From: Candidatus Versatilivorator sp.
GTDB lineage: Bacteria > Acidobacteriota > Terriglobia > Versatilivoradales > Versatilivoraceae
Length of the DNA stretch: 64,000 bases
Assembly: GCA_965207735.1 (NCBI GenBank)
Contig: OZ242296.1
Span: 128,001-192,000, forward strand
Reading direction: 5' to 3'
Part shown: positions 6,446 to 64,000 of the stretch, piece after piece
How the letters are laid out: the number at the start of each line of letters is the position of its first letter
Numbering within the stretch: the first letter of the stretch is position 1
Translations under genes and position numbers: made by a program
The notes under the pieces: model-generated
What the model saw: only the letters and a program-made list of their open reading frames with translations
What the model was told of the DNA's origin: nothing
The model's database searches: none

Positions 6446-8167
6446 ATGTACGTCGAAACCGTCCCCAACCGCAACTCTCCCCCTGCCATCCTCCTGCGCG
6501 AAGGCCGCCGTGAGGGTAAAAAGGTCCATAAACGCACCCTGGCCAATCTCTCCCATTGGCCCAAGGACAAGATCGAGCGCCTCCGGCGCGTGCTCAAGAA
6601 CGAACCCCTGGTCCATCCCGACCAACTCTTCGCCATCGAACGCTCCCTGCCTCATGGCCACGTCGAGTTGCTGCTGGAAGTGGTGCGGCAGCTGAAGCTG
6701 CCGGCGCTGATCGATTCCCGACCCTCTCCCCAACGGGACCGGGTCTTGGCCATGATCCTGCAGCGTCTGCTCTATCCGGCCTCCAAGCTGGCCACCACCC
6801 GTCTTTGGCACACCACCACGTTGGGTGAGGAACTGTCCCTTGAGGACACCGACGAGGACGATCTCTATGAGGCCATGGACTGGTTGCTGGAGCGTCAGGA
6901 CCGGATTGAGCGCAAGCTGGCCAAGCGGCACCTGGCGGAAGGGGATGCGGTGCTCTATGACGTCAGCAGCAGTTACTACGAAGGCCAGACCTGCTCGCTG
7001 ATGCAGTTCGGCCACAACCGGGACGGCAGGCGGGACCGGCCCATGGTGGTCTACGGGGTGCTGGCCGACCAGATGGGGCGGCCGCTGTCGGTGCAGGCCT
7101 ATGCCGGCAACACGGGGGATCCGACCACGGTGGGGGATCAGGTGGAGAAGGTGCGGGGTCGGTTTGGTCTGGAGCGGGTGGTGCTGGTGGGGGACCGCGG
7201 GCTGCTGACCGAGACGCAGATCAGCCATCTGAAGCGTCATCCGGGAGTGGGGTGGGTCTCAGCCCTGCGCCACCACCAGATACGCCGTCTGGTGGAGAGC
7301 GAGGCGGTTCAGCTCTCCCTGTTCGACGAGCGTCATCTGGCCGAAGTCCGCAGCCCGGACTATCCGGGCGAGAGGCTCATCGTCTGCCACAACCCGCTGC
7401 TGGCCGAGCATCGGCGGCGGAAGCGGGAGGCTTTGCTGACAGCCACCGAGGAGGCGCTGGCCGGAATCGCCCGCCAGGTGGCCAGACGGACCCGCACGCC
7501 CTTGTCGGCGACCGAGATCGCCGAGAAAGTCGGCCGGGTCAAGAACCGCTTCCAGGTGGCCAAACACTTCCGGACCCAGATCGCAGACGGGTCCTTCCAC
7601 TATGAACGGCGCACCGACGCCATCATCCGGGAGGCGCAACTGGACGGGTTCTACATGCTGAGGACCAGCGAGCCAGCCGATCGCCTGCCAACAGCCGCGG
7701 TGGTGCGCCGCTACAAGGACCTGACGCGGGTGGAGCGGGCCTTCCGCTCCCTCAAGACCGTCGACCTGCACATCCGCCCCATCCGTCATCGGGTGGAGAG
7801 CCGGGTGCGGGCTCATCTGTTCCTGTGCCTGCTGGCCTATTACGTTCAGTGGCATCTGCGGCTGGCCCTGGCTCCGTTGCTGTTCGATGACGAGGAGTTG
7901 GAAGCGGAACGGGCACGGCGAGACCCGGTGCTGGCGGCCCAGCCGTCGGACTCCGCCAAACGGAAGAAGAGCAAACGCCTCACCGAGGACGGCTTGCCGC
8001 TGCAGAGCCTGGAGACGTTGATGGCGCAGATGGCGACGCGGGCCCGCCACCAGTGCCGATTGCCCTCCGAACCCGATGGTCCGCGAGTCCAGCGATTGAC
8101 CGAGCCGACCCCGCTACAGCAAAGGGCCTTCGAGCTCATCAGGATGTTCCCAGGCAAGACAACCTGA
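6446..8167 (+). CDS. IS1634-family DDE transposase
   Basis: MYVETVPNRNSPPAILLRE, 'YDVSSSYYEG', 'VGDRG', 'VERAFRSLKTVDLHIRPIRH'. Confidence 0.93.
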   Translation: MYVETVPNRNSPPAILLREGRREGKKVHKRTLANLSHWPKDKIERLRRVLKNEPLVHPDQLFAIERSLPHGHVELLLEVVRQLKLPALIDSRPSPQRDRVLAMILQRLLYPASKLATTRLWHTTTLGEELSLEDTDEDDLYEAMDWLLERQDRIERKLAKRHLAEGDAVLYDVSSSYYEGQTCSLMQFGHNRDGRRDRPMVVYGVLADQMGRPLSVQAYAGNTGDPTTVGDQVEKVRGRFGLERVVLVGDRGLLTETQISHLKRHPGVGWVSALRHHQIRRLVESEAVQLSLFDERHLAEVRSPDYPGERLIVCHNPLLAEHRRRKREALLTATEEALAGIARQVARRTRTPLSATEIAEKVGRVKNRFQVAKHFRTQIADGSFHYERRTDAIIREAQLDGFYMLRTSEPADRLPTAAVVRRYKDLTRVERAFRSLKTVDLHIRPIRHRVESRVRAHLFLCLLAYYVQWHLRLALAPLLFDDEELEAERARRDPVLAAQPSDSAKRKKSKRLTEDGLPLQSLETLMAQMATRARHQCRLPSEPDGPRVQRLTEPTPLQQRAFELIRMFPGKTT

Positions 8168-8345
8168 GATTCCTGATTGATGATTGAAGATAAAGGAGTT
8201 ATCTTGTCGGTGGGTCAGGAACTTCGGGTTAAAGATGGGTTAGTGGCCCTTCGTCGTTCTTCGTGTCCCTTCGTGGATAACTCTTTTTTCCCGCACCCGT
8301 AAATTCTTGGCCTTTGGGGATAACGCACACGTGTTTCAGCGGATG

Positions 8346-9995
8346 TCAGTTTTTCCAGGACTGCCGGTGGTATTGAAGAATGGTGGGCCGAAACTTGGTG
8401 TTGATTTCGATATGAGCGTCATCGAGCCAGCCCTTGCCGAATTCGCTGGCGTTGGACAGCAGGGCCGCGGTGAGATAGCCGGTAGGGACCCCAATGGAAG
8501 TCAGCCCCTCCAACCTTTCCTTCATGTCCGACGCGGTGGTTTGGTGCAGCCAGGCCAGGTGCCATCCCCACTCCCCGAAGCTGGGGACGTTCTGCCGGTA
8601 GGGCAGGGCCTGGTAGCCGGCGGCGCGCAGCGTCTTCCCGATGCACAGAAACATCTCCCGGGAGTGGTAGGGAGAGGTGGATTGCACGGCCACCAGACCG
8701 GCGGGGCCAAGCTGGCGGGCCAGCATCCGATAGAAATCCAGAGAGTAGAGTTTGGCCGTGCCCACCGATTTCGGATCGGGAAAGTCGATGATCACCAAGT
8801 CATAGGGGCCCTGCAGGCTGCGAACGAACAAGTCGGCATCCAGGTTTAAGACCCGGACCTTGGCCTGGGGGTAGAGGGTGTCGCTGAGCAGGGAAGAGGC
8901 CAGCTTGCTGGGACGGGAGATGGTCTGAACATCCCCGTCAGAAACACCCAGCGCCGGTCGCAGGGTGACACGGCCGTCCAGCAGGGCTCCCCGGTTGAGT
9001 CGAACCAGGTCGGGATGGCTGGCTGCCAGGTCGGTCATGGCGGGATCGATGTCCACCAGGTCCACTCGACGCACCGTGTCGTACTTCAGCACCTCCCGCA
9101 GGGCCAGGCCGTCGCCACCCCCGAGAATCAGCACTCTGGCGCGTGCGGAAGCCACTGAAAAGGGAACGTGCACCAGCATCTCGTGGTAAATCCGCTCGTC
9201 CCGGGAATTGAACTGCAAGTGGCCGTTGATGAAGAGGCTGAGCCGGTCGTTCCTGCGGGTCATGACGATGTGCTGGAACCTGGAAGTGTGGCTGTAGATG
9301 ACGGGATCGTTGTAGGTCCTCTGTTCCAGCGAAACTCTCCATTCCTCCGACAGGGCCAGCAGGCAGCCCAGGATCGCCACACCGGCGCAGGAGAGCAGCA
9401 ATAGCTTCCTGAAGTGTCGCAGCAGGGGACGGAAGTAGGCCAGCCCCAGCAAGGCCAGCAGGAGGTTGGCGCATCCCAGGGCCACGGCGATCTGGTTGAC
9501 GGACAGGTTGGCGAACAGGACGAAGGTGAACAGCAGGGCTCCCGCCAGCGAGCCCACGTAGTCCATGCTCAGGATCTCGGAGAGGTTGGTTCTGAGACTG
9601 GTCGAATACTCGCGGTTGATGCGGATCAGCAGGGGGATTTCGAGACCGATCAGGATGCCGATCCCCAGTGAAAATCCCCACAGCAGCAACATGTAGCTGG
9701 TGGAATAGACGTAGGCCAGGTAGATGAGCAGGGCGCTGACCCCTCCCGTCAGCCCCAGCAGGATCTCAACCAGCAGGAACTTGTCGACCAAGTCGCCGCT
9801 GATGTTCTTCTGCAGGGTGGCTCCCAGGCCCATGGCGAACATCATCAACCCGATGACCACGAAGATCTGTTCGTGGGAGGAACCCATCAGGTTGTTGCCC
9901 AGCGCCCCCAGGGTGTACTCGTAGGCAATCCCGCAAGCCCCCATGACGAACATGGACGCCGCCAGCACCTTTCGGGCATGTCGGAACCGGTTCAT
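8346..9995 (-). CDS. speE: Membrane-bound polyamine aminopropyltransferase (spermidine synthase-like, N-terminal multi-TM domain)
   Basis: ~7 TM helices, then 'YHEMLVH', 'VLILGGGDGLALREVLKY', 'DIDP', 'IIDFPDP'. Confidence 0.9.
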   Translation of the reverse strand: MNRFRHARKVLAASMFVMGACGIAYEYTLGALGNNLMGSSHEQIFVVIGLMMFAMGLGATLQKNISGDLVDKFLLVEILLGLTGGVSALLIYLAYVYSTSYMLLLWGFSLGIGILIGLEIPLLIRINREYSTSLRTNLSEILSMDYVGSLAGALLFTFVLFANLSVNQIAVALGCANLLLALLGLAYFRPLLRHFRKLLLLSCAGVAILGCLLALSEEWRVSLEQRTYNDPVIYSHTSRFQHIVMTRRNDRLSLFINGHLQFNSRDERIYHEMLVHVPFSVASARARVLILGGGDGLALREVLKYDTVRRVDLVDIDPAMTDLAASHPDLVRLNRGALLDGRVTLRPALGVSDGDVQTISRPSKLASSLLSDTLYPQAKVRVLNLDADLFVRSLQGPYDLVIIDFPDPKSVGTAKLYSLDFYRMLARQLGPAGLVAVQSTSPYHSREMFLCIGKTLRAAGYQALPYRQNVPSFGEWGWHLAWLHQTTASDMKERLEGLTSIGVPTGYLTAALLSNASEFGKGWLDDAHIEINTKFRPTILQYHRQSWKN

Positions 9996-13033: not shown

Positions 13034-13651
13034 CTACGCCCGAAAGATCCTGACCCGGCTGGGGTCGATTCTTTCCGAGATGCCGACCTCGAATGGGTCG
13101 CCCTCATATTTCTCGATGAAGAGCTGCAGGTCGTCGCAGTCGAACTTCCAATAGTAGAAGCCCTCCGCCTCCGGCCCGTCGTCCTTGAAGTAGCCGGCCT
13201 CGGCGCTCTCCCGGTAGACCCATCGCTTGCCCTGATACTCGATGAAGCGGGACCGCGATCTCTCCTCGTCCATGCGGGCCAGATCTTCTTCGCTGACGCC
13301 GATGGCTTCCAGGTGCAGTCCGCCCTGCCGCTGGATCGAGATCTCCAGTTCGTCGTCCTCGGACCACTCCAGGAAGACCCTCTTGCCGGCGCTGAGGCCG
13401 CTCAGCTCGAACCACTGCTCGCCGTCGGACTCGTAGCGGTTGAGCCGGTCCACGGTAAAGGACAGATCTTCGTAGGATTGACCCGCTCCGGAGAGGATGA
13501 CGTTGTCCCCCCGGGTTGCATCCTTGACGGTGAGGTTGGCCAGGTCGGCTCGCTGGGGGAAGTCCTCCACCTTGGGCTTTTTTTTGCGCAGCGCCTTGTA
13601 GAGGAGATAGCCCGCCAAGCCCAGAAGGATCAGTATGAGGACTTCGGTCAT
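13034..13651 (-). CDS. DUF4178-like protein with N-terminal TM helix
   Basis: 'WFEL', 'FLEWSEDDELE', 'IEYQGKRWVYRESAEA', 'YYWKF', 'LFIEKY'. Confidence 0.75.
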   Translation of the reverse strand: MTEVLILILLGLAGYLLYKALRKKKPKVEDFPQRADLANLTVKDATRGDNVILSGAGQSYEDLSFTVDRLNRYESDGEQWFELSGLSAGKRVFLEWSEDDELEISIQRQGGLHLEAIGVSEEDLARMDEERSRSRFIEYQGKRWVYRESAEAGYFKDDGPEAEGFYYWKFDCDDLQLFIEKYEGDPFEVGISERIDPSRVRIFRA

Positions 13652-13675
13652 GGCGAGGTGCGGTTTGCCCTGGGC

Positions 13676-14362
13676 TTACGGCCTCTTGGAGGACTCCACC
13701 TCGGCCTTCAGCCGGTCCAGCTCGCTGTCGGTGGTGGAGACGTCCAGGGCGGCAAACTCCTTCTCCAGATCGGGGTCGGCGCCGGCCGACATGTTTTCAT
13801 AGGCCTTGGCGGTGGCTTCTTCCCGATTGACGGCCTCTTCGAAGCGCGAAATGGACGCAAAGGCGTTGTCGTCGGTTCCCAGGCCGCTCATCACCTGTGC
13901 CATTTTCTTCTGGGCGTTGGCGGCGTTCTTCCGGGCGATGAGGGTGCTGGCCTTGCGCTTGGACTCGTCGATCTTGCGGCGGAGCTGCTCCACCTGGTTC
14001 TTGAGCTTGTCGCGGGCGATCACGCCCTGATCCACCGCATCCTTGAGGGATGCCGCCTGCTGGTCGCATTCGGTCTTCTTGGCCAAGGCCTTCCTGGCCA
14101 GATCCTCGTTGCCCGCCAGCAGGGCTTTCCTGGCCTTGCCTTCCCAGTCCTTGGACTGCTCCAGGTGCTTGCCGTACTCGGCTTCCAGGCGATTGCAGTT
14201 GCTCATGGCATCGGCGGCGGACCGGATCACCCGGTGAAGCTGGTCCTCCATGTCCCGAATGCTCTGCCGCAGGGTCGACTCGAAAGTGGCATCCTCCAAT
14301 TTGTCGACGCCCTCGTTGAGCTTGCCCTTGCTGACTCGAAACAATCTGTCCAGGATCCCCAT
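13676..14362 (-). CDS. pspA: PspA/IM30 (bacterial ESCRT-III) family protein
   Basis: MGILDRLFRV amphipathic N-terminus, 'WEGKARKALLAGNEDLARKAL', 'LIARKNAANAQ', 'DLEKEFAAL', 'ELDRLKA'. Confidence 0.92.
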   Translation of the reverse strand: MGILDRLFRVSKGKLNEGVDKLEDATFESTLRQSIRDMEDQLHRVIRSAADAMSNCNRLEAEYGKHLEQSKDWEGKARKALLAGNEDLARKALAKKTECDQQAASLKDAVDQGVIARDKLKNQVEQLRRKIDESKRKASTLIARKNAANAQKKMAQVMSGLGTDDNAFASISRFEEAVNREEATAKAYENMSAGADPDLEKEFAALDVSTTDSELDRLKAEVESSKRP

Positions 14363-14407
14363 GGTTGTTGACTCCTTCGCTAAGAAATGCGGGTCAGGGT
14401 TCTGAGG

Positions 14408-14806
14408 CTAATCCAAAAGGTCCCTGGCCTCGCAGACATCCCCGACCAGGAAGCTGATGCAGGAGAGGATGTCGTCCCGATCGTCCTCGCCCAGGCTTTG
14501 CAGCTTGGCAAAGTTGTTCAGGGTGATGGCCGTCTTGCCGTTCCCCAGGTCGTAAAGCTGAAAACTGGAGGTGGAGATGCCGTTCTGGGCATCCAGCATC
14601 CGAGCCATCAGGGTAGGGGTGACCGAGCCCGAATCCACCACCTGGCACGAGACCGTGTTGTAGAGAATGTCATGCTCCAGCACGCAGGAGACCGGAATGC
14701 CGCTCTCGATGTCCCTGATCTGAAGGGTATCCCCTTCGACCTTGACCACCTCGTAACCCGCGTTGGCAACGATTTCCTCCACCTCATCGATCATCGGACC
14801 CGCCAT
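14408..14806 (-). CDS. YjfI/DUF2170- or CesT-like chaperone-fold protein
   Basis: 132-aa acidic alpha/beta protein directly upstream of pspA, good RBS (agggagg); family call rests partly on context. Confidence 0.6.
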   Translation of the reverse strand: MAGPMIDEVEEIVANAGYEVVKVEGDTLQIRDIESGIPVSCVLEHDILYNTVSCQVVDSGSVTPTLMARMLDAQNGISTSSFQLYDLGNGKTAITLNNFAKLQSLGEDDRDDILSCISFLVGDVCEARDLLD

Positions 14807-51967: not shown

Positions 51968-52250
51968 GCCGCAACGATGCCGGCGCCCGTCAGGAGGCGA
52001 TCATAGCCCAGCAAGCCCCGGGAAATCCCCTCCGGAAGTAGGTGGCCAGTCAGAGCCGTTCTCCTTCCCGAATCGACAGAGGAGGGCGCAAGGAGGCCGA
52101 TCTCCTTGTGGGACCGGCGGCTGCGCTGGCGACCTGCCTGACCCCCAAGTTGGCGCACTTCGCATGGGGGCCATTGACTCGCTACAGGCTACTAGGCAGC
52201 GGGGTCCTTGGGCAATCGCTGGGGACGTTGTTGAATTAGGGGCAATCGCT

Positions 52251-52455
52251 GGGGACGTTGTTGAATTAGTGGAGTTACCTGTCAACGCATCCTGCAACAA
52301 CGTCTCGATAATGGGAAAGCTCAAACCGCTGCAGCATGATGGGTGTAGCCTCCAGAGGCCGGTAGAGGGATTTGGCGGGGCACAGAATGTCGGCGCCTTG
52401 TCAGGCAAGGCTCAGAAGTTGGGCGAAGTTATTCCAGTAATTCAACAACGTCCCC
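52251..52455. mobile_element. 205-bp MITE/REPIN-like element
   Basis: Ends ggggacgttgttgaatta / taattcaacaacgtcccc; preceded by a 30-bp tandem duplication (52210-52239) of its left end. Confidence 0.85.
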
Positions 52456-53820: not shown

Positions 53821-54025
53821 GGGGACGTTGTTGAATTAGTGGAATTGCCTGTCAACGCATCCTGCAATAATGTCTCGATATTGGGAAAGCTCAAACCGCT
53901 GCAGCATGATGGGTGTAGCGTCCAGGAGCCGGTAGAGGGATTTGGCGGGGCATGGAGTGTCGGCGCCTTGTCAGGCAAGGCTCAGAAGTTGGGCAAAGTT
54001 ATTCCAGAAACTCAACAACGTCCCC
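53821..54025. mobile_element. 205-bp MITE/REPIN-like element
   Basis: Near-identical to 52251-52455, including short flanks. Confidence 0.85.
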
Positions 54026-56025: not shown

Positions 56026-57036
56026 ATGGCAACAAAGATCGGCATTAACGGATTTGGAAGGATTGGACGGCAGGTTCTTCGAGCGATATTGGAGCGACAT
56101 CCGGATACCATCGAGGTGGCGGCCGTCAACGATCTGTTTCCCGCCGAGACCAATGCTCATCTGCTGAAGTACGACTCGACCTACGGGCCTTTTCAGGGTG
56201 CGGTGGCGGCCGACGACGGGTCGCTGGTGGTGGACGGCCGCAGGATCAGGATCCTGGCCGAGAGGGATCCGGCAGCTATCAGCTGGGCCGATCTGGGGGT
56301 GGAGGTGGTGATCGAGTCCACCGGGGTCTTCACCGACGCCAACAAGGCCAAGGCCCACATCGAATCGGGCGGCGCCAGGAAGGTGATCATCTCCGCGCCG
56401 GCCAAGAACGAGGACCTCACCATCGTGCTCGGAGTCAACGGGGACCGGTACGACCCCGAGAAACATCGAGTGGTCTCCAACGCTTCCTGCACCACCAACG
56501 GGCTGGCTCCGGTAGCCAAGGTCCTCTTTGACCGCTTCGGCATCCAGAAGGGGCTCCTGACCACCGTGCACGCCTACACCAACAGTCAACGGCTGCAGGA
56601 TCTGGCGGCCAAGGATATGAGGGATGCCCGCTCGGCGGGTCAGAACATCGTGCCGGCGGCCACCGGCGCCGCCAAGGCGGTGGGGCTGGTCATCCCCGAG
56701 CTTCAGGGAAAGTTCGGGGGCATGGCCTTCCGGGTGCCGACGCCCACAGTTTCGGTCATCGACTTTACTGCCGTGCTGGAGCAGGCGGCCACCCGGGACC
56801 AACTGCGCCAGGCCATGCTCGACTACGCCCGGGGCTCCATGAAGGGCATCCTGGAGGTGACCGACGAGCCCCTGGTCTCGACCGACTTGAAGGGCAGCAC
56901 CTTCTCTTCCATCTTCAGCGCGGTGGATACCATTGTCGTCGACAACCTGGTCAAGGTGGTCGCCTGGTACGACAACGAGTGGGGCTATGCCTGTCGAACC
57001 GCCGACCTTGCCGCCATCATTGCCGGCAAGCTGTGA
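56026..57036 (+). CDS. gap: Glyceraldehyde-3-phosphate dehydrogenase type I
   Basis: 'INGFGRIGR', 'SNASCTTN', 'WYDNEWGY'. Confidence 0.98.
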
Positions 57037-57039
57037 CCG

Positions 57040-57519
57040 GTGGACCGATCCGTACCAGGCCGACCCATTCGCAAGAAGTCCCTGTCCGAGCTGGACCTGT
57101 CGACTCTCACCCACTTTGTCCTGACGGCTCGGGACCGGACCGACTTCCACAGGGGAGTGCGGCTGTTCAACCAGGCCAGGTTCTGGGAAGCCCATGAAGC
57201 CTGGGAGGCGGTGTGGCTGCGCCATCCCGAAGACGGGCGCTTCTTCATTCAGGGGCTCATTCAGCTGGCGGCCGCCTACCACCAGTTGCGGCGCAGGATC
57301 TATCGGGGCTTCCTGATCCACCTTGGCCGGGCCCAGGAACGCCTGGTGCTGTTTCCGGATCTTTTTCTGGGCATCGACGTGGCCGGTCTTCGCAAGGAGA
57401 TTCGCCGGGCGCTTCCACCGGGAGACTCGAAGGAATCTGAGGATAGCGCCGATTATTCCCGGATCGTTCCCCCGCGGATCCGGGTGGTGGACCCGTCAAC
57501 TCCCCGGGGACGTTGTTGA
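57040..57519 (+). CDS. DUF309 domain protein
   Basis: 'LFNQARFWEAHEAWEAVW', 'QGLIQLAAA'; stop codon lies inside the downstream repeat end. Confidence 0.88.
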   Translation: MDRSVPGRPIRKKSLSELDLSTLTHFVLTARDRTDFHRGVRLFNQARFWEAHEAWEAVWLRHPEDGRFFIQGLIQLAAAYHQLRRRIYRGFLIHLGRAQERLVLFPDLFLGIDVAGLRKEIRRALPPGDSKESEDSADYSRIVPPRIRVVDPSTPRGRC

Positions 57520-57710
57520 ATTGGTGGAATTAACTGTCCCCGCGTCCCGCAAAAACGTGTCGATATTGGGATGGCTCAAACCCCCGCAGCATGATGCGTG
57601 CAGCGGCCTGGAGCCTGCAGAAGGATCTGGCGGGGCATAGCGTGTCCACGTCTTGTCGGGCAAAACTCAGAAGTTGAGCAAAGTTATTCCAGTAATTCAA
57701 CAACGTCCCC
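57506..57710. mobile_element. 205-bp MITE/REPIN-like element (diverged copy)
   Basis: Same ends and alignable interior as the 52251 and 53821 copies. Confidence 0.85.
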
Positions 57711-57783
57711 TGCATTCTTTGCATATAATTCCCACGAGGTGTTCCCAATATCCTTACGCTACCGAAGCTTCGGAGAATTGACC

Positions 57784-58746
57784 ATGATTCGATCGTTTTG
57801 TCTTTCCATTTTGATTTCGTTGGCCACCATCCTCGTCCCGCCAGCCCTGCTCTCGGCGGATACTTGTGCGGAGCGCTTCGTTGTGGCCAGCGCCGTGCGC
57901 ACCCAGGGTGATGTCCAGGCTTTTGTCCAATGCGCCTACGAGTACGTCCAGGAAATGGGCATCGAGGAGGCCCGGCGGGCCTTCAACGAGGACGAGCAAT
58001 GGAAGAGCGGCTCCACCTATATCTTCGTCGACGAAGTGACTCCCATGACCGACATGGCTCGAGCGTTCGTCTTCCCACCCGACCCCTCCAGGGAAGGGGA
58101 GCCCTGGGGGCTGCTGATCGACGCGTTCGGCAACGACTACTACAAGGAGCTGACTCGTGTCATGGGCCACTCCGACGAGGGTTGGATCTACTACTCCTTC
58201 ACCAATCCGGCCACCGGCAGAGATGAGCCGAAGGCTTCTTATGTCAAGGCACTCGACTGGGGCGGAACCCCGGGGGCGATCGGCGCAGGAGTTTATCGCC
58301 GTGACATTCCGGGCACCTGCTGGAGCGAAGAAGTCCACGCCACGGGGCTGGAGGAGGATCCTTCCCCCGAAAGGCTGCAGGAGTTTGTCCGCTGCGCCGC
58401 CATGGAGTTGGATTCGGGGGGGTATTTCGCCTCGGTCAGCCTGGCCAACGATCCCCGTTGGCGAAGCGGCTCCATCTACCTGTTCGGGCTGGACATGTAC
58501 GGCTACACCCTCTTTACCGGCTCCCCGGCAAATCCCTTGATCGGCTCCGAGTTGTCCTCCAATTTCATCGGCAGTTTCGGGGGACGGAACGTTTTGGGTG
58601 TTGCCAATGCTTTTGGTGAAACCTTCCTCTACTACTCGAACCGGAATCCGGGCACCAACCAGTGGCGGCGCAAGGTGACCTTCGTCCAGCGGGTCACGTC
58701 TTTTGGAGTTCCGGTGCTGATCGGCGCCGGCTATTACCTGGATTGA
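57784..58746 (+). CDS. Secreted protein with two Cache-like domains
   Basis: Signal peptide; two repeats of 'FVxCA...W.SGS.Y.F...Y...NP.T....K..(Y/F)V...IGAG.Y'. Confidence 0.8.
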   Translation: MIRSFCLSILISLATILVPPALLSADTCAERFVVASAVRTQGDVQAFVQCAYEYVQEMGIEEARRAFNEDEQWKSGSTYIFVDEVTPMTDMARAFVFPPDPSREGEPWGLLIDAFGNDYYKELTRVMGHSDEGWIYYSFTNPATGRDEPKASYVKALDWGGTPGAIGAGVYRRDIPGTCWSEEVHATGLEEDPSPERLQEFVRCAAMELDSGGYFASVSLANDPRWRSGSIYLFGLDMYGYTLFTGSPANPLIGSELSSNFIGSFGGRNVLGVANAFGETFLYYSNRNPGTNQWRRKVTFVQRVTSFGVPVLIGAGYYLD

Positions 58747-58758
58747 GGCGATGTACCT

Positions 58759-59559
58759 TCAGGGGCCGATCAACTGCAGCCAGTCTACGAAAATGAACTC
58801 CATGCGGCCGACCAGCAGGGCAATTCGGCCCATCACGGTATAGCCGAAGGCTGCCCCGAAGGTGATCATGAGGATCCAGATCCCACCGCGGGACACCTGG
58901 CCCAGGAAGCCCTTGTGCTCCACGGAGAAGAAGAAGTAGATCAGGGCCGCCAGCAACCCGAACACGGTCACCAGGGCTGTCAGGGTCCCGATCCAATCGA
59001 TTCCCAAAAAGGCCGTCTGGCTGGGTTCCACCAGGGGAATCAGGGCGGGTGAGACCTGCTTGGTGAAATCGCTGACCAGATATCTGGTCAGGTTGGTGCC
59101 GGCGGCCCAACCCACAATGACCGCCAGCGGCCAACGGGCGATCCAGGTTCCCTTGGGCGCCAGCCGCCACAACAGCAGGCAACCGAGAACCAGTTGCACC
59201 AGGGCCATGCTCCGGTCGACAGGATCCACTTCCAACGGGACCTGGGCCATGTGCTCGTTCACAAAATGGGGAGCCAGCCTCCCCAGCATGTTGGGAATGA
59301 GCTGTTGCCAGATGCCCTGGACCATCCAGTAAGCCGCCGAGACCCCGATAAAGAGTGATTCCGCGAAGCGATAGAAGGGGTTGTCGTCGTATAGAAAGCT
59401 GAGGATGGAGAGGGTCAGAAAGGCTGCGAACCAGGTGCCCAGGCCGGCCCCGCTGACCCAGAATCCTTCCATCTGCCCCAGAGCGCTCCAGACCAGGGCG
59501 AACACCACCATAAGCCCTACCGCACCCACCACCAAGAAACGCCTGGTCTGCTCGTTCAT
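58759..59559 (-). CDS. Conserved hypothetical integral membrane protein
   Basis: ~7 TM; 'SFLYDDNPFYRFAESLFIG', 'YFFFS', 'ITFGAAFGYTVMGRI'. Confidence 0.85.
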   Translation of the reverse strand: MNEQTRRFLVVGAVGLMVVFALVWSALGQMEGFWVSGAGLGTWFAAFLTLSILSFLYDDNPFYRFAESLFIGVSAAYWMVQGIWQQLIPNMLGRLAPHFVNEHMAQVPLEVDPVDRSMALVQLVLGCLLLWRLAPKGTWIARWPLAVIVGWAAGTNLTRYLVSDFTKQVSPALIPLVEPSQTAFLGIDWIGTLTALVTVFGLLAALIYFFFSVEHKGFLGQVSRGGIWILMITFGAAFGYTVMGRIALLVGRMEFIFVDWLQLIGP

Positions 59560-59563
59560 TGAC

Positions 59564-60466
59564 TTACTTTTCCAGAGACTTCAGCCGTTCACCCGACGAT
59601 CCGCGTGAGGCAAAGTAGGCGATGTTCCCGACCACCAGGAACAGGATGATCACCAGGTGGGCCAGGGTTTGGGGACCCATGCGTCGAATGGCGGCAAACC
59701 TCTCCGTATCCGCCCCGTAGGCTTCCGAGTACCCCTTGATCAGGAGGGACTCGTACTCGGCGGCCGCTTTCAGGCCGCCCATGATCCCGCTGAGCTGCCT
59801 CGGATAGTAGGGGTAGAGCAACGGCGCCATGACCGCGGTAACCCCTCCGGCGACCGGTACGCCGGTGCGATCGCCCCCGAACTGGATCCACTCCTTGAGT
59901 CCGGGATACCCCCCGCTGACGTTGAGGATGAGATCCATGTCCTTGAGCCCCTTGACGTTCTGCATTATGGGGATCTTGTCGATGGGCGTACCTTCGACAT
60001 CCGACTGATAGAGAGTGCGAAAGTCCGCCACCACCACCTGGATGACCCCTTGTCCGCCCGGCCTGAAGCCCAGCATGACATAATCCCGGCCATACCTGTA
60101 GTCGGAGAACTCCTGCTCCAGCACCTGATCGACCGTCTTTAGCGTTTGCGCTTGACCGGTAGGCCACAGGCACATGAAGAACAGCTTCTGCTTGCGGCGG
60201 CCGAGGTGGCGGACATAGCTGTCGGCCATGGGCTGGAGCTCGGGCTCGCTTTCGGGGCCGTAATCGAATGGGAGCAGAACATTGGAGCCGGGGGGAAGCG
60301 CCTCGATTCGATCATAGATGGCCTGAACCTCGGGAGTTGCGACTTCGTCGATGGTCAGGTCGAAGGCCAGAGGAATCACGACCGCCAGCATGATGAACAG
60401 GAAGATCCAGCGTCGGTCAATGACCTGCAGGCGTTCAAACATCGAGGGTCTTTCCTTTTGAGCCAT
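59564..60466 (-). CDS. Conserved hypothetical membrane protein with soluble alpha/beta domain
   Basis: TM at each end; 'FDYGPESEPELQP', 'YGRDYVMLGF', 'GGLKAAAEYE'. Confidence 0.85.
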   Translation of the reverse strand: MAQKERPSMFERLQVIDRRWIFLFIMLAVVIPLAFDLTIDEVATPEVQAIYDRIEALPPGSNVLLPFDYGPESEPELQPMADSYVRHLGRRKQKLFFMCLWPTGQAQTLKTVDQVLEQEFSDYRYGRDYVMLGFRPGGQGVIQVVVADFRTLYQSDVEGTPIDKIPIMQNVKGLKDMDLILNVSGGYPGLKEWIQFGGDRTGVPVAGGVTAVMAPLLYPYYPRQLSGIMGGLKAAAEYESLLIKGYSEAYGADTERFAAIRRMGPQTLAHLVIILFLVVGNIAYFASRGSSGERLKSLEK

Positions 60467-60478
60467 GCGGATTTCGTC

Positions 60479-61315
60479 CTAGTCGTTATCGCTTCCCAGA
60501 TAAGAGCGTTCCACTCCGAGGATGAGTCGGAGCGACATGGAAATGATGCCCAGGCAGATACCGATCATGATGGCCCGTTGACCCGCCAACTGGGGCACGA
60601 CCATGATCCAGTTGACCAGGTCGGGAACGGTCAGGAGGTAGAAGTCTCCTCCTCCGGCCAGGATCAGGTAACCATAGAGGGTGCGAGCCAGCACAAAGGC
60701 GGCTAGTGCGCCAATCAACGAAAGTGAGACCCAGCGCTTGGAGCGGTATTGCTCCCATGCAAGGTAGGCCAGCAGAGCACCGAACAGCAGCTCGAGGGAG
60801 CCAGGCAAGGTTTCGGTGAGCGCCGTGCCCACCAGCGTCCGGCCCAGCAGGATGATCAGGGCCGCGATCAGCAGGACGGTGGCTTCCCGGTTCTTGGCCC
60901 GGAAGGCCCGATAGGAAGCGGAAGCCACAAAGAAGGCCAGCAGGGAGAAGGTGGTCGCCGACAGGGGAAGGAAGCAGTAGTCGTAGGCGGCTTGAAACCA
61001 GCTCCCTTCAGCCTCCAGGGCGTGCTTGACTCCGGACGGTCCGCCCACCTTGAAGAGCCCGATGGCCAGCACGGCGAAAAAGCCCGTCATGGTGACCGCG
61101 CTGTACCCCCAACCGGGCTGAGAACGGGAGATCTTGGCCAGGTGGATCTTGGCCAGGTTGCCCCCGCCCAGCACGAAGGCGAAGGCGGCCAGCACGTCAA
61201 AGGTGATGGACAGGCTCTCGTTGAGCTGGTCGAAGGGCGGGTGGGGGATGAAGGCCTCGAACAGCATGATGACCCCCACCACAAACGTGATCAGCAACGG
61301 TATCTGTCGTCGCAT
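60479..61315 (-). CDS. Conserved hypothetical integral membrane protein
   Basis: 'PLSATTFSLLAFFVASASYRAFRA', 'AGQRAIMIG', 'LRLILGVERSYLG'. Confidence 0.85.
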   Translation of the reverse strand: MRRQIPLLITFVVGVIMLFEAFIPHPPFDQLNESLSITFDVLAAFAFVLGGGNLAKIHLAKISRSQPGWGYSAVTMTGFFAVLAIGLFKVGGPSGVKHALEAEGSWFQAAYDYCFLPLSATTFSLLAFFVASASYRAFRAKNREATVLLIAALIILLGRTLVGTALTETLPGSLELLFGALLAYLAWEQYRSKRWVSLSLIGALAAFVLARTLYGYLILAGGGDFYLLTVPDLVNWIMVVPQLAGQRAIMIGICLGIISMSLRLILGVERSYLGSDND

Positions 61316-61324
61316 TCGGGTTTC

Positions 61325-62524
61325 CTAGACGAACATCTCCAGCTTGAGAAAATCCACCACCGACTGAAGGCCTCCACTTCCCGTCCACAGCGCCAGGGTG
61401 GCGGTGAGGCTCCCCAGAAGAATGGCCCCCATCACGATCAGCTTGCCCACATCCTGCCCCTTGAGACTGCCCAGTTGCTTGGGATCGCCGCTCAGATAGG
61501 CGCTGGCCGCGAAGAGTTCCTCGCCCATCAGCGTGTAGTCACAGGCCGCCACGAAGAATGGAAGCTGAGAAGGCATGGCGGTGCCGGCGATCTGGATGGC
61601 CCCGATCCGGTTGCCGGTCTCGGCCAGCAGCAGGGATTCGGCGAAAAAGGCTCCCATGTAGAGGCAGGTGGCCGGCTCGTCCCGAAGCAGCATGCCGTTG
61701 ACCCCGGCGACGTAGCCGAACTGCTCGTCGGTGAGGTAGTGGACCATGTCCTCGTTGTAGCTCTCGGGGCGGCCGGCTTCCAGGTAGGCCTGCCTCACCA
61801 CCTCCCTGCCGGTGGTCATGACCAGAGAGCGGCTGACCGGGACGTCCAACTTGGCGTCGTACTCGGCGATGGTGCGGGAGACGTATCCCAGCAGGGTGAG
61901 ACCGGCCAGGGTCTGAACGTTGTCCATGTCCATGATCCCCGGCACGAAGACTACCGGCCGCCCCATCTCGGTGGCGCGGCCCACGGCTTCGTCGACAGCT
62001 TCCAGGCCCGCGATCTTGCGCACGAACAGTTTGCGGCCTCGGCTCGCCAGCTGGATAAAGAGGATGACAAAGAAACAGATGGTGCCGCCGATGATGAGAA
62101 TCCACAGCTTGTCCCGGTCGAACCACTGGGCCCTGGATTCTCCGGTCACGACTTCGGAAGAGGCACTGGAGTCGGCCGTTGTGGCCACTACCTTGAAAGA
62201 ATAGCGGACACCCCGTTCGGCGCTGGAGAATGTCCACGCCTCCTCGCCGGGGCCCACCGATCCCAGCGACAGCCAGGAGGCCTCCTCGGTGCCCGGAGCC
62301 GTTTCCTCGGGCACGGGTGACCGGAAGACTTCATAGGAGAGGACCCCGGGATCGGGGGAATCCTTCCAGCGGATTTCGATGGCGTGCCCCGAATCGTTGG
62401 GCACGTCCGACGCTTGCACTCCGGTCGGCGGAGACGGTGCCTTCGAAGGAGCGTCCTGCGCCTCGAGCAGCGGAGCGAGTGCCAGGGTGGCGACCCATAG
62501 AGCCGGCGCACAACGGAATTTCAT
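61325..62524 (-). CDS. Fibronectin type III + DUF6754-like membrane protein
   Basis: Signal peptide, FN3-like 'PTGVQASD..W...YEV...YSFKV', TM, 'RKIAGLEAVDEAVGRATEMGRP', 'GEELFAASAYLS'. Confidence 0.8.
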   Translation of the reverse strand: MKFRCAPALWVATLALAPLLEAQDAPSKAPSPPTGVQASDVPNDSGHAIEIRWKDSPDPGVLSYEVFRSPVPEETAPGTEEASWLSLGSVGPGEEAWTFSSAERGVRYSFKVVATTADSSASSEVVTGESRAQWFDRDKLWILIIGGTICFFVILFIQLASRGRKLFVRKIAGLEAVDEAVGRATEMGRPVVFVPGIMDMDNVQTLAGLTLLGYVSRTIAEYDAKLDVPVSRSLVMTTGREVVRQAYLEAGRPESYNEDMVHYLTDEQFGYVAGVNGMLLRDEPATCLYMGAFFAESLLLAETGNRIGAIQIAGTAMPSQLPFFVAACDYTLMGEELFAASAYLSGDPKQLGSLKGQDVGKLIVMGAILLGSLTATLALWTGSGGLQSVVDFLKLEMFV

Positions 62525-63654
62525 CAGTCGCGACCCTCGATTATCTCGACGTTGGCCCGGGGCACGTAAACCGGCTCTTCCAGGCCCTCCACCCGCACCG
62601 AAACCACCCTGGCCCTGGACCCCGAATCCAGCCGGGTCGGCTCGGAGGGCAGGGCCGCCACCCGGCCCAGCTTTCCGAACCAGGGATTGCGGATGATGCG
62701 GACGGTGCTTCCGACGTCCATGCCCTGCTCCCGGGTCCGCTCCAGTGACTGCGGAGCCGCGCCCTTGAGGGGGATAATCACCTCGGGGCGAATGACTCCG
62801 GCTCGAATCTGGGTGGCTCCGTTGATGGAGGCCCGCTGTCCCTGGTGGCGTTTCAACAGCCTGAAGGTGCGGGGCGCCATGTCGATTCTTCCAAATCCTT
62901 CGGTGACGATCAAGGTCACACCGAGATTTTCATGTCCGGTAATGGCCACACCGAGGTCATGGCCCAGGAATCGCCGCAGGTCCTGGTCATCGAATCCTCC
63001 CGCCACCACGCCGCGGATGCCGAGATCAACCGCCTTCTGAAGGGCGGCTCCGGTGACCAGCGACCCTCCGACCACCACCCGGCCGCGCAGGTCCGACGAG
63101 AGCGACTCTTCGTCCAGGACCTCTCGGGGCGAGGAGGAAACCATGGCAATCTCACCGGCGGCCTCGCCTCCGATGCCAAAGATTCCCTGAATCAGGGTCC
63201 CGCAGCTTTCGACCACCACCCCCTGCTCGGGCACCACCTCCCGGACCCGGCCCTCGATGTAGGCCTCGACTTCAACCGGTTGTGGCGGGCCCCGCAGCAC
63301 CACCTGTCCGGTGACACCGGAAATGCTTTCGATGGTCCCATCCAGGGTGGCCGCCGCTCGGGAGGTGAGCAGGCCGAACAGCGACCTGGCTTCGGCAATG
63401 ACCTCGCCCTGGCGCACCTGCTCGCCCTCCTTCTTGAGCATGGCGCCCGGCACGTCGCTTTGATCGACACCCATCTTGTTGGCGACGTTGACGATTTCGA
63501 CCTTGCCCGGCAGGAAGGTGCGGGCCACCACCTGGTGGGGCTCGACCCTGGCTCCCTCCTCCACCACCACCTCCCCCGGAATGGGCAGAAGCCGCCGCCT
63601 GTGGAGCAACTCGTTCTCCGTCACCTTGAGACCGGGAGTGTAGGCGTGGGCCAT
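62524..63654 (-). CDS. Conserved hypothetical soluble protein (barrel-sandwich hybrid repeats, C-terminal KOW-like)
   Basis: 'MAHAYTPGL', 'GEVVVEEGARV', 'KKEGEQVRQGEVIA', 'TEGFG', 'NGATQIRAGVIRPE', 'GSTVRIIRNPWFG'. Confidence 0.85.
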   Translation of the reverse strand: MAHAYTPGLKVTENELLHRRRLLPIPGEVVVEEGARVEPHQVVARTFLPGKVEIVNVANKMGVDQSDVPGAMLKKEGEQVRQGEVIAEARSLFGLLTSRAAATLDGTIESISGVTGQVVLRGPPQPVEVEAYIEGRVREVVPEQGVVVESCGTLIQGIFGIGGEAAGEIAMVSSSPREVLDEESLSSDLRGRVVVGGSLVTGAALQKAVDLGIRGVVAGGFDDQDLRRFLGHDLGVAITGHENLGVTLIVTEGFGRIDMAPRTFRLLKRHQGQRASINGATQIRAGVIRPEVIIPLKGAAPQSLERTREQGMDVGSTVRIIRNPWFGKLGRVAALPSEPTRLDSGSRARVVSVRVEGLEEPVYVPRANVEIIEGRD

Positions 63655-63658
63655 GGCT

Positions 63659-64000
63659 TCAGCGAGGGATCGCCCCCGGGGAATAGACGCCGATTTCCTC
63701 GATCCAGGTTTTCAGGGCGCCAATTCTCTCGGCCGGATCCGAGTGGAGCGACAGGGGCCGCCCCCGGCAATCGACAACCAGTCCGACGGTTCCTCCTTGA
63801 ACCGTGGCTTCCAGCGGCACACCCTTGCCGGATCCCAGGTCGAAATCCCGGGCGGGGTCCAGGTAAACCCGGGCCTCGGCGCCGGTCTCCAACGGGTGCC
63901 GGCGCATCTCGCCAACTCGGAGGGTCTCCCGTCTCTCTTTGCCTCCGGGAAGCTCCAGCCTGTAGGCCAGGGCCGGCCGGCCCGGCTTGGCCGTGCCCCG
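63659..64000 (-). CDS. C-terminus of GlmL/MutL (glutamate mutase L)-like protein (5' part outside window)
   Basis: Frame open to window end; 'FDLGSGKG...GGTVGLVVDCRGRPL' recalled as the C-terminus of long GlmL-like proteins that precede this gene set. Confidence 0.65.
   Translation of the reverse strand, partial: RGTAKPGRPALAYRLELPGGKERRETLRVGEMRRHPLETGAEARVYLDPARDFDLGSGKGVPLEATVQGGTVGLVVDCRGRPLSLHSDPAERIGALKTWIEEIGVYSPGAIPR

Follow-up and report, generated by a model that had tools for sequence, protein, structure and literature searches.

The last part of a 64,000-nucleotide (nt) stretch of Candidatus Versatilivorator sp. (Acidobacteriota; GCA_965207735.1, contig OZ242296.1, positions 128,001 to 192,000), hereafter the window, carries six genes, A to F, of a tightly packed eight-gene unit. 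Databases place A with the helpers of vitamin B12 enzymes, and its membrane partners have, as judged from their sequences, no known function. We propose that A, a putative ASKHA (actin/Hsp70-fold) ATPase, and the soluble protein B form with the membrane module C-D-E-F an ATP-coupled machine, in which A-B docks on and powers the module, which would be a so far undescribed kind of solute importer; we assign this reading a probability of roughly 45%. Taken by parts, A-B very probably serves C-D-E-F, and the odds that the system is a transporter are about even. The unit is likely an undescribed ATP-driven membrane machine, plausibly a nutrient importer, because the set stays together in groups without the tested B12 enzymes. 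The system is real, widespread and apparently undescribed: no published description was found in the literature, where subscription papers and supplementary tables could hold a mention, and no solved structure, Pfam family beyond DUF6754 and FN3, riboswitch or paper identifies the membrane module. A conserved multi-gene machine for which we found no paper, with its marker domain in 56 of 201 sampled Planctomycetota genomes and in many poorly studied phyla and with more than 5,000 clusters at 50% identity for the single subunit E, represents a large gap in membrane biology whatever its role.

Co-occurrence of the ATPase with the membrane module

We compared profile matches above cut-off in 301 Acidobacteriota and 201 Planctomycetota genomes, many of which are drafts and among which kin are not independent. 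PF13941, the MutL/GlmL family of A, occurs in 12 of the Acidobacteriota genomes and DUF6754 (PF20539), the domain of C, in 9; in each of these 9 the two lie no more than about 4 kb apart, and 6 of the 9 belong to one family. The corresponding Planctomycetota counts are 57 and 56, with both domains in 54 genomes (lists compared by eye). Four Planctomycetota genomes (G331, G340, G406 and G435) carry the two domains 250-530 kb apart.

GlmL acts as the reactivase of a B12 enzyme. The mutases searched were GlmE and lysine/ornithine aminomutase (PF09043). Neither of the two was detected in the 9 Acidobacteriota and 54 Planctomycetota genomes that carry the module, and the controls were positive (G158, G163, G265 and G344 for GlmE, G163 for the aminomutase). 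A sequence-only reading of the window had seen no mutase subunit next to the GlmL-like gene and had suggested looking at co-occurrence with glmS/glmE. In the source genome, which is rated 100% complete, no GlmE was found, and no mutase lies beside A. GlmE is present and adjacent in all three other Acidobacteriota PF13941 genomes, one of which also has the aminomutase. Among three PF13941-only Planctomycetota, G344 has an adjacent GlmE, and G474 and G500 have neither mutase. Most PF13941 genes of the two sampled phyla are thus neither beside nor accompanied by the tested mutases (63 module genomes versus 4 with a mutase), and metabolic reconstructions are therefore affected.

To place A, we built a tree of 27 ATPases (18 module-linked, 5 with B-like domains and 4 mutase-adjacent; rooted for drawing only). 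All 18 module-linked ATPases fall into a single group (95/98), outside which lie the five forms carrying B-like domains. The four mutase-adjacent forms sit on very long branches, and about 5 changes per column along one branch separate them from this group. Beside the four mutase-adjacent PF13941 genes neither B nor C-D-E-F was detected. These results bear on the alternative that A merely reactivates, in the usual way, some B12 enzyme whose gene lies elsewhere, and that its link with C-D-E-F is incidental. In keeping with this alternative, residues 10-482 of A match PF13941 far above the cut-off (E=5.6e-120; 401.6 bits against 27), and methylmalonyl-CoA mutase, diol dehydratase and ethanolamine ammonia-lyase are further candidate clients. 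We nevertheless consider it very improbable: none of the 63 module genomes has GlmE or the aminomutase, co-occurrence holds even where the genes are unlinked, A is only 26-30% identical to the mutase-adjacent forms, and it falls under all three NCBIfam cut-offs for GlmL and Or-4 (204 against 475 bits for NF040745, 201 against 600 for NF040744 and 147 against 204 for TIGR01319).

We then surveyed gene content around C, at the best 80 of 384 genome loci and at the best 80 of at least 551 metagenome loci, the latter found with divergent C proteins. D was detected at 77 of the genome loci, E at 71, F at 69, B at 52, A at 45 and U1 at 32; the metagenome loci, in the order C-D-E-F, gave D at 72, E at 61, F at 54, U1 at 33, B at 25 and A at 16. 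U2 matches were found in 35 of the other loci fetched. By record title, the loci come from Acidobacteriota, Planctomycetota, Ignavibacteria, Zixiibacteriota, Eisenbacteria, Marinimicrobia/Fidelibacterota, Calditrichaeota, Fermentibacteria, Gemmatimonadetes, Verrucomicrobia and Pseudomonadota, so that gene order, whose conservation across phyla the sequence-only reading had proposed to examine, is kept in many phyla. Two loci (L015/G303 and L022/G305) carry two or three copies of the whole C-D-E-F block in genomes with a single PF13941 match, and a variant order U1-C-D-E-F-A-B exists. A close relative (L008:7047-13048) shows apparent frameshifts in A, B and E, reflecting assembly error or decay.

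The ATPase pair and its predicted contact with the module

The sequence-only reading had described a GlmL-like C-terminus from the 113 codons of A inside the window. Reading upstream, as it had suggested, showed the full protein to be a PF13941 member of the long form, with a C-terminal extension of about 120 amino acids (aa), with ASKHA motifs and no adjoining mutase. Phosphate-1, phosphate-2 and adenosine-type motifs, which define the ASKHA superfamily, are all found in the window's A and are conserved across the 18 module-linked copies of the tree. On this basis A is a putative ASKHA ATPase with intact motifs.

The predicted fold of B comprises a barrel-sandwich hybrid (51-123), a swivel beta/beta/alpha domain (152-296) and a KOW/SH3-like end (310-375). 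Fold comparison identified a swivel-type fold, with dehydratase reactivase outside the top 50 fold matches, and sequence searches of the PDB with A and B gave no significant match. Two carrier functions were considered for B and rejected. As a biotinyl/lipoyl carrier it has no Lys at the tip of the barrel-sandwich hairpin, which in this copy reads F93-G94 between R90 and T97; a K97 is found in 27 of 28 rows, but at the start of the next strand. As a phosphohistidine carrier of the phosphoenolpyruvate-utilising type it has GGxDDxDL at the spot judged equivalent, and no more than 3 of 28 rows carry His at 232 and 241.

A and B are fused in 4 of 44 loci (L059:6888-9920, L063:6871-9915, L050:2-2623 and L080 ~6933-9929), and at the junction, seen in the first three, a linker stands in place of the start Met of B. 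Five distant PF13941 ATPases (L100:7278-9749, L101:8310-10814, L102:6780-9512, L104:8391-11329 and L105:7390-10322) are fused to or lie beside B-like domains without the KOW end. At two loci (L015:4441-4773 and L022:2310-2600) HepT-like and nucleotidyltransferase genes lie between A and B.

Hydantoinase/oxoprolinase-type ASKHA subunits and sugar kinases phosphorylate or activate substrates. By analogy, the unit could be a membrane-bound ATP-dependent enzyme or group-translocation system in which A phosphorylates or activates a substrate from C-D-E-F and the acidic swivel loops of B are part of the site. This is an unlikely alternative in our view, since none of the swivel positions checked in B holds a conserved His, this copy lacks both hairpin lysines and no enzyme gene is a constant neighbour among those scanned.

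To predict physical contacts, we modelled A (8-492) and B (1-300) with C (164-360) as the partner, leaving out the C-terminal extension of A and the KOW domain of B. In this prediction, an approach the sequence-only reading had put forward and that we applied to parts of A, B and C, C docks on A with a score of 0.58, compared with 0.00 for three controls, including one with A replaced. At least 92% of contacts are common to the runs, and the predicted local confidence (pLDDT) of the partner is at least 76. Of 157 solved pairs 116 reach the scoring mark, as do 2 of 215 mismatched ones. The docking nevertheless gives weak support because at 0.60 or under there are only 18 solved pairs and both mismatches. 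It weakly suggests that A may bind the predicted cytoplasmic DUF6754 domain of C.

C matches DUF6754 with 399.3 bits against a cut-off of 27. This alpha/beta domain is very conserved and the outer FN3 domain is variable: the ectodomain may be absent, consist of one FN3 or reach about 700 residues, and it is very large at L142, L158, L184 and L194 (C frames of 938-1036 codons). FN3 filled both match lists of a fold comparison with the full-length C model and accounted for all matches of C in a PDB sequence search; the ESM Atlas returned no usable match for DUF6754 and only unnamed clusters for E, and the plasmid collection no match for C. DUF6754 may resemble DHS-like domains. Topologies were derived from hydropathy and Lys/Arg counts on family alignments, which predict that the DUF6754 domain is cytoplasmic and that the E domain and the C ectodomain face outward.

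D has a six-helix family core, predicted to start on the inside, to which this copy adds some 50 residues that are in part hydrophobic. The same analysis suggests that the F core is inverted relative to D, and self-alignment of F points to a likely threefold repeat (offset ~63, P=3e-4, probability 39%). E has a near-invariant His in its second transmembrane (TM) helix, with His in 97% of 111 rows, and tolerates large insertions, Ig-like or HEAT-repeat-like by eye, at one fixed point of its outer domain (P0202 and P0209). E and F are fused in 3 of 150 representatives through a hydrophobic linker that agrees with the predicted topology. The E family comprises 5,131 clusters at 50% identity (E<=0.001), and the F profile matched 7,737 of 8,000 candidates scored. 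The best PDB matches were E=0.3 for D and E=0.81 for E, with none for F; D, E and F match no PADLOC model and, above cut-off, no family of Pfam or NCBIfam, and E contains no recurring Pfam family.

C and E run parallel in helix/strand order and align end to end, which we regard as a lead to possible paralogy. Paralogy was not significant by hhalign (P 0.04 and 0.06, then 0.018 with a richer profile; probability ~3% or less), and a domain-only comparison gave P 0.014 versus 0.39 for the reversed control. For D and F, the reversed control outscored the real comparison and no paralogy was found.

The near-invariant His of E would suit an importer of cobamide or another cofactor, in which A would retain the reactivase chemistry of its ancestors and extract the cofactor from the alpha/beta domain of C after capture by E. 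Relatives of A adjoin B12 mutases, an ASKHA protein with a swivel is a reactivase architecture (PMC7674605), and the source genome has 8 B12-binding domains. This alternative is quite improbable in light of other results: a search of 17 loci gave no cobalamin riboswitch, no His is conserved in C, and the scanned neighbours include no btu or cob gene, with a B12-binding radical SAM gene after the module in L142 and L194 only.

Proposed mechanism, cargo and relation to known systems

In the solute-importer reading, the E domain and the C ectodomain would capture a ligand outside, D and F would pass it across the membrane, and the ATP cycle of A, with the swivel domain of B, would remodel C so that the ligand is freed inside. 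A single A-B pair would serve several diverged cassettes. Ligand release would resemble how reactivases built of an ASKHA ATPase and a swivel domain extract the cofactor of their client. The alpha subunit of diol/glycerol dehydratase reactivase is an Hsp70-like ATPase with a swiveling domain, according to PMC7674605. The joining of ATPase and swivel in A and B, fused in the four loci above and in L100-L102, is similar. The dehydratase reactivase has no sequence match to A or B, however, and the apparent client here is a membrane module, with the prediction placing C on A and not on B alone.

For clues to the cargo, we scanned 198 neighbouring proteins (94, 46 and 58 from longer lists), called with a home-made gene picker and in part cluster representatives. 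Of 185 loci (2.36 Mb), 6 carry a gene for an oligopeptide-type ATP-binding cassette (ABC) ATPase, which immediately follows F or separates two cassettes at L023 ~13600-14500, L059:13966-14916, L063 ~13658-14539, L143:8761-9657 and L115:8739-10619; no permease was found beside it among the neighbours scanned. In the same 185 loci we found OPT in 2, SBP_bac_5 in 2, CstA in 1, several peptidases and gcvP in 2. Glycine cleavage genes lie directly upstream of the module at L114:11161-15492 and L196:865-3728, and L114 has in addition genes for an OPT transporter and a CAAX protease on the downstream side, L196 an SBP_bac_5 gene. Compared with a rough background of 4 PF08352 and 6 PF00496 matches in 5 genomes (~19.5 Mb), these counts suggest that peptide-related genes are enriched near the module. 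Peptides or amino-acid compounds are our best, weak guess at the cargo, and a peptide-type cargo is a tentative proposal that we think will more probably prove wrong.

The neighbourhood is also relevant to the possibility of an envelope assembly, secretion or sensing machine, with A as a nucleotide-switched scaffold and no small solute imported. Genes for a MoxR AAA_3 ATPase, DUF58, BatA-vWA and DUF4175 (L001:9279-17150; G000:C1 ~194278-202149) are co-oriented and end ~23 nt before U2, and the cluster lies directly upstream in close kin. The variable C ectodomain (500-700 residues at its largest), the large insertions accepted by E and the lack of a riboswitch in 17 loci or of a constant metabolic neighbour would also fit such a machine. 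Arguing the other way, no secretin, pilin, outer-membrane or wall-synthesis gene recurs among the scanned neighbours, diverged repeated cassettes with one ATPase resemble importers of the energy-coupling factor (ECF) type, and the DUF4175 link is confined to 8 close-kin loci. We rejected the MoxR cluster as part of the unit because the DUF4175 gene was found only in those loci, and we hold the envelope function to be unlikely, on a par with the enzymatic one.

Several observations weigh against the importer. On the genomic side, PF13941 is missing from 2 of the 56 Planctomycetota genomes with DUF6754, and G474 combines a strong PF13941 match with no DUF6754. The 21 kb of L035 hold C as the sole gene of the unit, at L108 none of D, E and F was detected next to C, and the five distant ATPases with B-like domains have no adjacent membrane cassette. 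Unrelated housekeeping genes make up most of the 198 scanned neighbours, the loci with the ABC ATPase may include 4 kin among the 6, the source genome has no PF08352 match, and Rfam found only tRNAs and no riboswitch in the 17 loci. On the protein side, searches of Pfam, NCBIfam and PDB sequences linked none of D, E and F to a transporter family or a solved structure; C and E keep no conserved charge in the middle of a helix, and the conserved charged residues of D and F are mostly near helix ends. The topologies of C to F follow solely from the hydropathy and Lys/Arg counts, and the script called five helices in the F core, the sixth being our own reading. Solute transport and its cargo are what we infer, and ATP hydrolysis by A is putative. 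Of the earlier proposal of an ATP-driven membrane complex, either a transporter or an envelope machine, the first part has thus gained from co-occurrence, gene fusions and a weak docking prediction, while the choice of function is still something we infer.

The unit matched no characterised complex in Pfam, NCBIfam and PDB sequence searches, in agreement with the sequence-only reading, and comparison with known systems gives partial likenesses. GlmL/MutL of glutamate (methylaspartate) mutase (NF040745, TIGR01319) and Or-4 of ornithine degradation (NF040744) have PF13941 and the ASKHA core motifs in common with A. They are 445-487 aa long compared with 605 aa for A with its extension and, unlike them, A has fixed partners in B and C-D-E-F and no mutase found in the genome. 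ECF and ABC importers share a soluble ATPase unit among several membrane units; the sharing of A-B among cassettes and the outward-facing alpha/beta domain are alike. Here, however, the ATPase is of the ASKHA and not the P-loop ABC type, none of C to F matched a permease or binding protein in Pfam, NCBIfam or the PDB, and none of the eight unit genes matches a P-loop ABC ATPase or permease family above Pfam/NCBIfam cut-off. PilM on PilN, and FtsA, are actin-fold nucleotide-binding proteins that dock on inner-membrane proteins, as A would. In contrast to PilMNOP and FtsA, A belongs to another ASKHA family, its partners are polytopic, and no pilus or division genes recur among the scanned neighbours. 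Unlike Rnf/Nqr (RnfC/NqrA, RnfA-E/NqrD-E), the unit has no Cys conserved above 50% in D, E and F, no detected Fe-S or flavin domain and no sequence match above cut-off.

We know of no transporter class driven by an actin/Hsp70-fold ATPase. In its most far-reaching form, the importer would represent such a class of primary active transporter: a shared A-B motor on interchangeable pseudo-symmetric cassettes, with C/E as inverted domain copies and D/F as inverted helical bundles, importing peptides in many uncultured phyla, and with GlmL and Or-4 as offshoots. We consider this form doubtful.

The locus and its surroundings

The eight genes comprise the six in the window and U1 and U2 upstream of A beyond it, linked to the unit via GTGA and ATGA overlaps. 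Numbering as G000:C1 refers to the single-contig source genome, in which the window is G000:C1:128001-192000. The sequence-only reading of six co-oriented genes with gaps of 12 nt or less and one TGATG overlap was accurate: the gaps are 4 nt (A/B), -1 nt (B/C, TGATG), 9 nt (C/D), 12 nt (D/E) and 4 nt (E/F). Its protein descriptions also stood, hydropathy agreeing with two polytopic proteins (D and F) and a doubly anchored alpha/beta protein (E); to the barrel-sandwich hybrid and KOW-like end of B we add a predicted swivel domain, and to the exported FN3-TM-DUF6754 arrangement of C a second TM helix.

Table 1. Genes of the eight-gene unit (window positions unless marked G000:C1).
Gene	Position	Strand	Product	Features
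A, 3' end (113 codons)	63659..64000	-	605 aa (whole gene)	whole gene at G000:C1 191659-193476
B	62524..63654	-	376 aa, soluble	barrel-sandwich hybrid, swivel, KOW/SH3-like
C	61325..62524	-	399 aa	signal peptide, FN3, TM, DUF6754, TM
D	60479..61315	-	278 aa, polytopic membrane protein	six-helix family core
E	59564..60466	-	300 aa	TM, alpha/beta domain, TM
F	58759..59559	-	266 aa, polytopic membrane protein	likely threefold internal repeat
U1	G000:C1 193473-193838		121 aa, soluble	upstream of A, outside window; no family match
U2	G000:C1 193835-194254		139 aa, small membrane protein	upstream of U1, outside window; no family match

U1 and U2 have no Pfam or PADLOC match, and none of the eight unit proteins matched a PADLOC defence model at E<=0.01. 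A promoter and terminator scan of the locus gave chance-level results only. Contigs from three RNA libraries of two studies, mostly with 90-95% likeness, overlie much of the operon and in X1 bridge F/E, E/D and D/C; they were not used as evidence because such contigs can show neither transcription nor strand.

Convergent with F, at a gap of 12 nt, lies a gene for an exported double Cache-domain protein without a signalling domain (window 57598-58746, +), preceded by ordinary genes for GAPDH and then DUF309 (56026-57519, +). Three intergenic regions (~52000-52400, 53840-53980 and 57510-57720) contain alike short translated stretches, suggesting a dispersed repeat element. Elsewhere on the contig, L002 (G000:C1 218044-224112, -) encodes a protein of 2,022 aa with many leucine-rich-repeat-like units, near which FG-GAP/ASPIC-type and TPR-like genes were recognised by eye.

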